Below the pieces are notes generated by a model. It was not told where the DNA came from. It saw nothing but the letters and a program-made list of their open reading frames with translations, and ran no database searches. This document shows positions 2,464 through 4,482 of a stretch of 40,574 nucleotides of DNA, in pieces. The stretch spans positions 1 through 40,574 of the forward strand of contig CAYXSG010000002.1 in the NCBI GenBank assembly GCA_964467325.1. The letters run 5' to 3'. The position numbers and the translations under genes are program-made. Positions within the stretch are counted from its first letter, which is position 1. Every line of letters begins with the position of its first letter. Source of the DNA: an uncultured Candidatus Saccharibacteria bacterium. Its GTDB lineage: Bacteria > Patescibacteriota > Minisyncoccia > Phycocordibacterales > JAKAEA01.

Positions 2464-4482
2464 TTATTTTACAAGTTTCAAAAACTCCTCTTCCAAAAGT
2501 ACTTTGACGCCGAGGTTTTGTGCGTCGGTGAGCTTTGAGCCGGGATTTTCACCAGCGACCACATAGGCAGTTTCTTTTGAGACAGAACTAGAAACTTTAC
2601 CGCCAGCTTGGCGAATCAATGCTTTGGCTTCATCGCGCGAGAGGGAGGAGAGGGTGCCGGTGAGGACGAAAGTTGCACCAGCAAGTTTCCCCTCTTTAGA
2701 CAAAGAGGGGTGGCCGTCTGCGGCCGGGGTGTTCTGAATTTTCACTTCCCTCAACAACCTCTTAACCAATTCTTTATGACTTTTTTCTTTAAACCACGCC
2801 ACGATCGCCGCAGCGACAATGTCGCCGACGCCATCCACGGCCATCAGGTTTTCCAAAGTCGCATTTTGGATCGCATCAATCGTGCGGAATTTTTCGGCGA
2901 GCAAGTAGGCGGTTTCTTCGCCGACGTGCGGAATGGAAAGCGAAATAATGAAGCGCGCCAGCGGCACTTTTCTCGCCTTTTCAATTGAAGCAAGCAAGTT
3001 GTCCACGGATTTTTCGGCGAAACGCGGCAACTCCAGTAGCTCAGATTTTTTGAGCGTGAAAATATCGGCTGAAGAAGAAATGAGTTCGTGCTCGAGCAAT
3101 GCGTCAATGATTTTTGGACCCAAGCCGTCAATGTCAAAAGCAATTTTTGAGCAAAAATGATAGAGCCGGCGCTTTTGCTGGATGAAAGAATTTTTATCCA
3201 CGCAGCGCCACGCCGCGGTACCGGCAATGCGCTCGATGCGCCCGTCGCCGCCGCACTCGGCCACAAATTCCGGAAACTGATACGGCTTTTCTTTGCCGGC
3301 GCGCATTTCTTTGACAACCGAAACAATGTCCGGAATCACGTCGCCCGCTTTTTGAAGAATCACCGTGTCGCCAATGCGAACGTCCAAGCGTTTGATTTCA
3401 TCTTCGTTGTGAAGCGTCGCGCGCGAAACGGTTGAGCCGGCAACCAAAACCGGCCGCAAGTGCGCGACAGGTGTGAGCACGCCGGTGCGCCCGATTTGCA
3501 ATTGAATATCCTCAACCACCGTCGTCACCTGCTCGGGCGTAAATTTGAAAGCGATGCCGAAGCGCGGCGCTTTGCCGGTGTAGCCGAGCGTTTCTTGCTG
3601 GGCGCGAGCATCTACTTTTACAACCACGCCGTCAATTTGATAGTCCAAAGAATTTTTTTTCTTTTCCCATTTTTTCCAAAAAGCAATCACTTCGTTTATG
3701 TCTTGGCAAAATCCAAAATGCTGATTGACCTTGAAGCCGAGATTTTTCAAATATTCCAATTCTTCATGCTGAGTTTTCGGCAAGGTTTCGCTCGTGCGCG
3801 CCACGTCGTACACGAAAACATCGAGTCGCCGGCCGGCCACGATGCTCGGGTCGAGCTGGCGAATCGAACCGGCGGCGACATTCCGAGGATTCGCAAACGG
3901 CGCTTCGCCTTTCTTTTTCTGTTCTTTGTTGAGCTTTTCCAGCTGGCTTTTCGCGAGCCAGACTTCCCCTTCAGCAATCAGGTCAATCGGTCGCGCGAGC
4001 CGCAGCGGCACCGATTCAATCGTCCGGACATTCGCCGTCACATCCTCGCCCACCTCGCCATTGCCGCGCGTCGCCGCCGTTTTGAGCAAACCTTTTTCGT
4101 ATTCCAAAACAATTTTCAAACCATCAATCTTCAGTTCGCAGGTGTAATTTGGTTCAGCTTTGGAAAATTTTTTCACCCTTCCATCAAAATCTTTTATGTC
4201 CTGCTCTGAAAACGCATCATTAAAAGACCACTGCGGCACCTTATGCGTCACTTTGGCAAATTCTTTCAAGGGTTCGCCTGCCACTCTCTGAGTCGGCGAA
4301 TCCGGAGTAACGAGCGCCGGAAACTTGGCCTCAATATCAAAAAGCTCTTTCTTTAAGGAGTCCAGCGCTTCATCCGAAATCTCTGGCTTGTCTAGGACAT
4401 GATAAAGATAGCGATGATAGTCAATCGCTTCACGAAGCTTCTTCACCCGCTCACGAATGTCTTTGGAAATCTGCTCGGTCAT
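2464..4482 (-). CDS. ligA: NAD-dependent DNA ligase
   Basis: 672 aa with the adenylation motif KIDGL, an OB fold, a Zn finger, HhH repeats and a C-terminal BRCT domain (ATFVLTGTL...). It contains an in-frame repeat arm at 2680-2736. Confidence 0.95.
2680..2736. repeat. single arm of the palindromic element family, in frame inside ligA
   Basis: 52/57 positions are identical to the arm at 10055-10114 (hand alignment, one 3-nt indel). It includes the hairpin CCCCTCTTT-AGAC-AAAGAGGGG and the terminus GGTGTTCTG. Confidence 0.8.

Follow-up and report, generated by a model that had tools for sequence, protein, structure and literature searches.

Short palindromic repeats lie in frame within ligA and other housekeeping genes of a probable Candidate Phyla Radiation lineage

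How does a repeat that otherwise lies between genes come to occupy the reading frame of an essential enzyme? The 40,574-nt stretch of DNA analysed here (the window) poses this question in ligA, the gene for NAD-dependent DNA ligase, where an earlier note had matched an in-frame segment to the arm of an intergenic element. We find that the segment belongs to a family of short palindromic repeat units of ~45–65 nt, here called arms, which recurs in frame in further genes and in other genomes. Our preferred explanation, to which we give a probability of roughly 80%, is that arms are selfish units similar to repetitive extragenic palindromic (REP) sequences and to transposable elements of the miniature inverted-repeat type (MITEs), and that the copies in essential genes are translated survivors of a filter that passes only in-frame, stop-free, hydrophilic copies at flexible loops. 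Judged by the names of its homologues, the window appears to come from a member of the Patescibacteria (Candidate Phyla Radiation, CPR), Paceibacteria- or Parcubacteria-like: a search of 5.8 billion proteins with its LigA returned 8000 homologues with E < 1e-50 and names of Patescibacteria, Paceibacteria or Parcubacteria, the closest being merely 74% identical. Below, L001–L024 are DNA stretches or contigs that we fetched, and P-numbers denote homologous proteins.

The segment at 2680–2736 reads AGCAAGTTTCCCCTCTTTAGACAAAGAGGGGTGGCCGTCTGCGGCCGGGGTGTTCTG, with the terminus GGTGTTCTG. A computed global alignment of 2680–2739 with 10055–10117 gives 55 identities in 60 aligned columns and one 3-nt gap, and an ungapped repeat search gives 91% over 54 nt (family D4); both agree with the 52 of 57 positions that the earlier note had counted against 10055–10114. 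The perfect hairpin and the terminus that it described are present as stated, and translation of the open reading frame (ORF) returns its in-frame 21-residue peptide, from coding-strand codons ATT CAG AAC ACC CCG GCC GCA GAC GGC CAC CCC TCT TTG TCT AAA GAG GGG AAA CTT GCT GGT. The note had allowed that the similarity might prove to be at background level. A hidden Markov model (HMM) built from five long intergenic arms alone, with the ligA and gatA copies excluded, finds 2676–2741 at 59.5 bits (E = 7e-18), far above the best of 50 shuffled windows (11.1 bits). A 24-mer core occurs four times in the window at up to three mismatches and in none of 100 shuffles, and GGTGTTCTG occurs six times against 0.26 expected. 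The similarity of the ligA segment stops exactly at the arm borders, and at least five positions separate the segment from each of the other window copies. Modelled as mRNA, it forms both hairpins (-25.8 kcal/mol, z = -2.9). Its membership of the repeat family, in frame inside ligA, is confirmed.

A common plan fits 21 copies from eight sources, the window and seven fetched loci. Hairpin 1, comprising CYCCTCTT(T), a 3–6-nt loop and (A)AAGAGGRG, is followed by a single T. Hairpin 2 has a stem of 4–11 bp whose sequence varies from copy to copy yet is always self-complementary, and is missing from a short arm type. The arm ends in a conserved GRGGTGTTC(TGA). Across seven copies of equal length, all helix cells (100%) of both hairpins form standard pairs, and compensatory double changes affect 5 of 14 pairs. 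The values for paired cells, cells changed on both sides and covariation score were not equalled by any of 500 shuffles, and in slid controls the paired cells drop to 46–69%. Hairpin 2 is bracketed in all arms (2712–2736 in ligA) by near-direct repeats, GGRGTG ... GRGGTG, and the R of the GRGGTGTTC end changes in step with the Y/R pair at position 2 of hairpin 1. These two observations suggest that hairpin 2 arose by nested insertion or that some bases pair alternatively. Rfam 15 matches only a tmRNA (transfer-messenger RNA) and two tRNAs in the window, the arms matching no known RNA family, and a permissive scan of 8100–10200 gave sub-threshold chance matches only. We set aside the idea of intrinsic terminators, given that no U-run follows either hairpin on either strand. 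Template and variable repeats of diversity-generating retroelements, introns, inteins and CRISPR were also considered; arm anatomy fits none of them.

Eight arms lie in the window, six of them intergenic, as three inverted pairs, and two inside genes, ligA and gatA (Table 1). The outer ends of the three two-armed elements are terminal inverted repeats, TCAGAACACC...GGTGTTCTGA, and only a few bases separate the intergenic elements from the upstream stop codon (2 nt for 8143–8272). The short arm at 9995–10045 is without hairpin 2. Elements 8143–8272 and 39071–39216 are found identical in two independent contigs, L008 and L011 respectively; because these short contigs from samples of another data set, Ga0265319, reproduce them exactly, the two elements are not assembly noise. 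Arms are arranged head-to-head in the window, tail-to-tail in L003 and L005, and singly in L004 and L013. Since all three arrangements occur, the single arm is the unit, in agreement with the lone arms in genes. The earlier term 'arm' thus holds for family membership but not for half of an obligate two-armed element.

Table 1. Arms in the window and the genes that contain them
Feature	Position	Strand	Details
gatA (amidase family)	98..1555	minus	485 aa; ~10 aa longer than orthologues
In-frame arm in gatA	786..835	minus	second in-frame arm; codes EHLGSKTRHSSLEKEEM; intergenic-only HMM E = 1e-10
ligA, NAD-dependent DNA ligase	2464..4482	minus	672 aa; complete: Ia, adenylation (KxDG = ELKIDG), OB, HhH, BRCT
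In-frame arm in ligA	2676..2741	minus (translated sense)	residues ~581–601; 19 arm codons between I and G
Hairpin 1 of ligA arm	2689..2710		CCCCTCTTT-AGAC-AAAGAGGGG; perfect 9-bp stem; read as (H)PSLSKEG
Hairpin 2 of ligA arm	2712..2725		GGCCG-TCTG-CGGCC; 5-bp stem; variable module of the family
Conserved terminus of ligA arm	2726..2736		GGGGTGTTCTG; coding strand CAGAACACCCC = Q N T P
Intergenic element, two inverted arms	8143..8272		arms 8143–8212 (minus) and 8206–8272 (plus); between two pilin-like genes
Intergenic element, pilC–pilin spacer	9993..10119		short arm 9995–10045 (minus) and long arm 10056–10119 (plus)
Intergenic element, two inverted arms	39071..39216		between adk and secY

In the protein, the arm falls where the earlier note had placed it, between the HhH region and the BRCT domain. 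Pfam recognizes Nlig-Ia, adenylation, OB, HhH (HHH_2, 510–573) and BRCT (596–670) domains, and the borders at 573 and 596 bear out this placement, with the nuance that the final arm residues, KLAG, take up the BRCT domain's conserved K-[FL]-x-G lead-in. A structure prediction, which the note had proposed as a check, agrees. Our AlphaFold2 model, built from 50 aligned orthologues (mean predicted local distance difference test score, pLDDT, 81), has the last helix of the HhH region at 567–579, then no secondary structure until the first BRCT strand at 604–608, with pLDDT < 50 at residues 586–596. Because the arm is modelled as low-confidence coil between this helix and this strand, we assign it to the inter-domain hinge. 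No stop interrupts the frame in use, which is more hydrophilic than any other (grand average of hydropathy -0.96 in ligA and -1.57 in gatA); the antisense frames of arms are more hydrophobic, with Cys, Trp or Phe. As a separate observation on the enzyme, of the four zinc-finger cysteines, LigA of the whole clade retains just C410 and C427, both invariant (residues ~405–432, window 3200–3260).

Comparison with orthologues, a further check named in the earlier note, uncovered both filled and empty hinges. Among the 120 best LigAs, arm-like peptides sit at the exact hinge in five besides the query (P0002, P0005, P0008, P0012 and P0018; the P0005 copy, like one in the GatA protein P0125, is seen as peptide only). 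DNA confirms hinge arms in L001, L002, L017, L018 and L023. The orthologues that carry them are 69–74% identical to the window LigA. All of the DNA-confirmed copies keep hairpin 1. Hairpin 2 is GGCCG/CGGCC in the window, CGGAC/GTCCG in L002 and a perfect 9-bp stem in L017 (CAGATGCAT/ATGCATCTG), and is absent from L018 and L023. The window reads the arm terminus as QNTPAADG and L001 reads it as QTPRPDG, small indels having shifted the frame of alike DNA; because the two use different frames, the resemblance was inherited as DNA and not as protein. A single event probably gave rise to the window and L001 copies, and the other hinge copies, given their different hairpin-2 modules, are probably separate events or products of conversion.

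The hinge is empty in the syntenic loci L019, L020 and L021, which have a native Lys/Glu-rich linker there (for example, IEKEPKAAANKLKFKD). No arm match was returned by nhmmer in these linkers, there is no arm anywhere in the 12–22 kb of the three loci, and their pilC–pilin spacer is likewise empty. The element at 9993–10119 therefore has an empty orthologous spacer as its counterpart in L020 and L021, and also in L001, which has no gatA arm either. Between the conserved I and TFVLTG, native hinges measure 13–20 residues and arm-bearing ones 20–25. When the linker is masked, a neighbour-joining tree intermingles arm-bearing and arm-free LigAs, although the tree is star-like and poorly resolved.

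The arm in gatA sits in a variable loop between DSTS and RIGVP, which has 21 residues against 11 in the closest orthologues; the arm supplies 17 of the 21. This loop is filled in the window, L022, L023 and apparently P0125, and is arm-free in L001 and most of 120 orthologues; it is longer in P0125, P0128 and P0149. L023, a contig of 4.3 kb, has four arms: one in a loop of the LigA adenylation domain (TTPPRGLGTPPNLGGVGGG), one at the LigA hinge, one in the gatC–gatA spacer and one in the GatA loop. The LigA-loop and GatA arms of this contig have a genome-specific hairpin variant in common, CCCCTCCTAATTTAGGAGGGG, and are 87% alike, whereas the arm at the orthologous LigA loop of L022 is only 75% alike to that of L023, which indicates spread within a genome. 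L022/L024 have arms in both the adenylation-domain loop and GatA, and the same LigA loop is 10–15 residues longer, with arm-like peptides, in P0010, P0024, P0026 and P0031. In L004, from a different metagenome-assembled genome, an in-frame arm codes for a 21-residue peptide of TsaD between NHMEGHI and the GGHT motif. (A further insert in this TsaD, ~55 residues long and Ser/Pro/Ala-rich, lies at ~1000–1170, residues ~85–140, and Pfam matches the protein in two stretches.)

Arm-coded peptides recur as ..HPSLSKEG.. or ..TPPNLGG.., and the GAACACC end points to the N-terminus in every coding copy whose orientation can be read. Perfect hairpins persist in the ligA hinge copies of L002, L017 and L023 and in the coding arms of L022. 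Four candidate loci, L006, L007, L012 and L016, were discarded as unrelated coding sequences that match by chance. A concatenated arm-peptide query against the 5.8 billion proteins gave seven word-sharing candidates, none with E <= 10, by a method that is ill-suited to 20-residue peptides and says little about prevalence.

How might an arm have become part of ligA? On the explanation that we prefer, arms would be selfish, non-autonomous DNA, present as single units or inverted pairs in the few intergenic spacers of compact genomes. One of them would have entered ligA at the HhH–BRCT hinge and been retained there, its length keeping the frame, the frame in use having no stop codon, and its hydrophilic Pro/Gly/Ser/Lys/Glu peptide falling at a flexible linker otherwise free to vary. 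A functional ligase would contain the transcribed and translated arm as its linker, most of the native Lys/Glu-rich stretch having given way to it. This filter could also account for the gatA copy and for the LigA, GatA and TsaD copies of related genomes; the same few loops would be struck repeatedly because only harmless insertions into essential genes come to be observed. We infer that arms are mobile, that the arm-bearing protein is made and active, and that loss of native linker codons followed insertion.

Several results weigh against this explanation. Pfam annotation of the 40-kb window shows neither a transposase nor a REP-associated tyrosine transposase (RAYT) gene. No target-site duplication is visible between filled and empty pilC–pilin spacers, in a comparison of strongly diverged genomes, and no parent insertion sequence with matching ends was found in the window. 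With the nearest LigA 74% identical, we saw no strain-level polymorphism and no event of movement. Strict DNA-pattern scans of 185,579 species genomes returned the family in only three stretches; metagenomes added 11, and several of these stretches are unrelated. Arm-bearing ligA linkers are just ~5 residues longer than arm-free ones. Because the net gain is so small, simple insertion is insufficient and an additional deletion or replacement must be assumed; the clean insert implied by the earlier note gives way to a 19-codon arm that stands in for most of the native 13–20-residue linker. The gatA arm, too, takes the place of native residues. Insertion followed by loss of redundant codons and a replacement event fit the data equally. 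Between the window and L001, moreover, the arm is better conserved than its surroundings, at 82% DNA identity against 68% for the ligA gene and 65% against 41% (saturated) at third positions, with 18 of 18 bases of the hairpin-1 stem identical. Conservation over these 20 codons exceeds neutral decay, and hints at constraint, conversion, or recent transfer or spread.

This last finding is the main argument for a different view, in which the arms in ligA, gatA and tsaD have been exapted and are kept for a function, whether as an mRNA hairpin at which ribosomes pause at a domain boundary, a site for protein binding or recombination, or a useful linker. The amino acids point the same way (85% identity in the arm, 73% in the rest of the enzyme), as do the persistence of perfect hairpins in coding copies of L002, L017, L022 and L023, the stability of the mRNA fold given above, and the 85–90% likeness of arms from different genomes, whose host genes are ~68% alike. 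Yet most orthologues manage without an arm, the encoded peptides vary in frame and sequence among copies, the sample is small, and recent spread or conversion explains the similarity equally well; we consider retention for function doubtful. Somewhat better placed, but still unlikely in our judgement, is a single ancient insertion into the LigA linker of the clade's ancestor, inherited vertically and mostly mutated away, with the survivors kept by selection or gene conversion and neither recurrent insertion nor a hot spot. It would explain why all orthologues, whether or not an arm is recognizable, have similar linkers of 13–25 residues, why two derived characters, a CCCC/GGGG stem and an identical gap of 3 nt against the intergenic copy, unite the window and L001, and why the hairpin-1 loop ATAAAC is common to L002, L017 and L023; even the arm-free linker of L019 is faintly similar (CAGAA...CAGACGGCC...AAAGAG). 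Against it stand the empty nhmmer result for the L019, L020 and L021 linkers, hairpin-2 modules so wholly different that evolution in place under coding constraint is improbable, the scatter of arm-bearing LigAs in the tree, and the recurrence of the phenomenon, in genome-specific variants, at further sites and in further genes.

The remaining two alternatives concern the segment itself. Repeats of such length can mislead assemblers, and the window LigA (P0001) was seen on one contig only, so that a repeat-induced chimeric join might have put an intergenic arm into ligA. However, ligA sequence flanks the arm left and right in one uninterrupted reading frame, the sequence differences noted above set this arm apart from every possible donor copy in the window, and orthologues from other samples have an arm at the identical codon position. 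Because the ORF is intact and L001 carries an orthologous arm, misassembly is very unlikely. We give almost no credence to the idea that the intergenic arms were copied from ligA, or that the likeness is due to chance or low complexity: nothing beyond the similarity itself speaks for it, whereas arms have a conserved architecture of their own, stand in both orientations and occur in unrelated genomes and genes, and neither the sharp borders of the similarity nor the shuffles (at most 11 bits against 59.5; the 24-mer core in 0 of 100) are what it would predict.

As to what moves the arms, it is conceivable, though we think it improbable, that they are non-autonomous partners or homing targets of selfish cassettes coding for a DUF559 endonuclease (PF04480; Vsr-like, PD-(D/E)xK). 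In L024, a CPR locus, an arm-flanked DUF559 gene (2233–2745) fills the same pilC–pilin spacer as the window element at 9993–10119, and in L014, an unrelated contig of 61% G+C, a DUF559 gene (3962–4623) lies between arms of the same architecture, with the termini facing the gene. Because both places are also generally permissive spacers, these are two anecdotes and not a test of association. A tblastn search with DUF559 over the loci gathered before L024 matched only the L014 gene itself, and the literature that we searched yielded no paper linking DUF559 to repeats. Were the idea true, arms would represent a new class of hairpin repeat, driven by an endonuclease and able to cross phyla, and would actively supply essential CPR genes with new protein linkers.

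Of known systems, the closest in behaviour is the Rickettsia palindromic element (RPE), the precedent that the earlier note had invoked. In-frame palindromic repeats in protein genes are established in Rickettsia (Ogata et al. 2000, 2002, as summarized in PMC10969869), and the precedent holds to that extent. As far as that summary goes, RPEs resemble arms in being palindromic and present in many copies, between genes and in frame within unrelated housekeeping genes, in coding for a family-specific peptide at sites compatible with the fold, and in having hosts with reduced genomes that depend on other cells. The analogy extends to the arms' occurrence in several unrelated housekeeping genes, always at loops. 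Arms differ in their host (CPR, not Alphaproteobacteria) and in length (~45–65 nt against ~100–150 bp for RPEs in the same account, about a third). They also differ in their modular build of a conserved hairpin 1 and a hypervariable hairpin 2, in replacing native linker residues for a net gain of ~5–10 aa, and in that the same loop holds different sub-types by lineage. Arms therefore act like RPEs and are not members of the RPE family; length, host and build set them apart, not a sequence comparison. The best reading of our analysis is an RPE-like phenomenon in a CPR lineage.

REPs and REPINs likewise share features with arms, namely short imperfect palindromes with a conserved non-palindromic tag beside a covarying stem, occurrence as single copies, inverted doublets and clusters, and intergenic copies directly after stop codons. 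REPs are, however, recognized by a GTAG or CGTC tetranucleotide at one end of a 20–40-nt palindrome and by a cognate RAYT gene for a Y1 HUH transposase (PMC3733652), and are extragenic by definition; arms have the tag GRGGTGTTC with no invariant GTAG or CGTC, two hairpins per unit and copies inside genes, and no RAYT was seen in the 40 kb. The two-armed elements, at ~125–145 bp, are MITE-like in having terminal inverted repeats, in being non-coding alone and in the capacity to form translational fusions. Unlike transposons or MITEs defined by such repeats, arms also occur tail-to-tail and singly; the comparisons above turned up neither a target-site duplication nor a parent insertion sequence. 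Occasional in-frame intragenic copies are on record for enterobacterial repetitive intergenic consensus sequences, Coxiella QMITE1 and Anabaena MITEb/e (PMC10969869). The earlier note was not aware of any such description for CPR-type genomes, in agreement with our survey, which found no description in the searchable literature on MITE, REP or palindromic elements of CPR/Patescibacteria. In-frame palindromes, known until now mainly from Rickettsia, thus have in CPR a second case, unrelated to the first.

The parallel suggests that compact, host-dependent genomes with scant intergenic space may push repeats into the loops of essential proteins, where such repeats would regularly give rise to variation in linkers and loops. 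The parallel also carries a warning for annotation and phylogenomics of CPR bacteria: parts of the markers LigA, GatA and TsaD can be repeat-derived, and are then not homologous residue by residue. Conversely, arms offer a natural map of permissive insertion sites in these three proteins.

We also record features of the window that are separate from the arms. Four tandem pilin-like paralogues (8025–9840) have an N-terminal methylation/transmembrane motif and, in part, C-terminal ends in common (repeat families D1–D3 and D6); they belong to a type IV pilus cluster that also includes pilM, pilB/T-like ATPases, pilC and a prepilin peptidase. All syntenic loci have, upstream of the first pilin gene, a hairpin with compensatory changes (for example, ACCGC-TTAT-GCGGT and CCGTCA...TGACGG), followed by an invariant GGTCGATTTA; it lies at ~9900–9945 (minus strand) in the window, 4712–4745 in L001, ~6020–6060 in L020, ~4950–4985 in L021 and 2850–2900 in L024, and may serve the type IV pilin operon as a conserved leader or regulatory element. 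The tmRNA gene (25770–26180, 83.7 bits) is directly 3' of smpB (25159–25758), and the two tRNA genes are at 19725–19811 and 23267–23339; nothing about these genes is unusual. The gene for nucleoside diphosphate kinase (34285–34896, minus strand, 203 aa) matches its Pfam model in two stretches, with an apparent insertion after ~residue 55 that is unrelated to arms.

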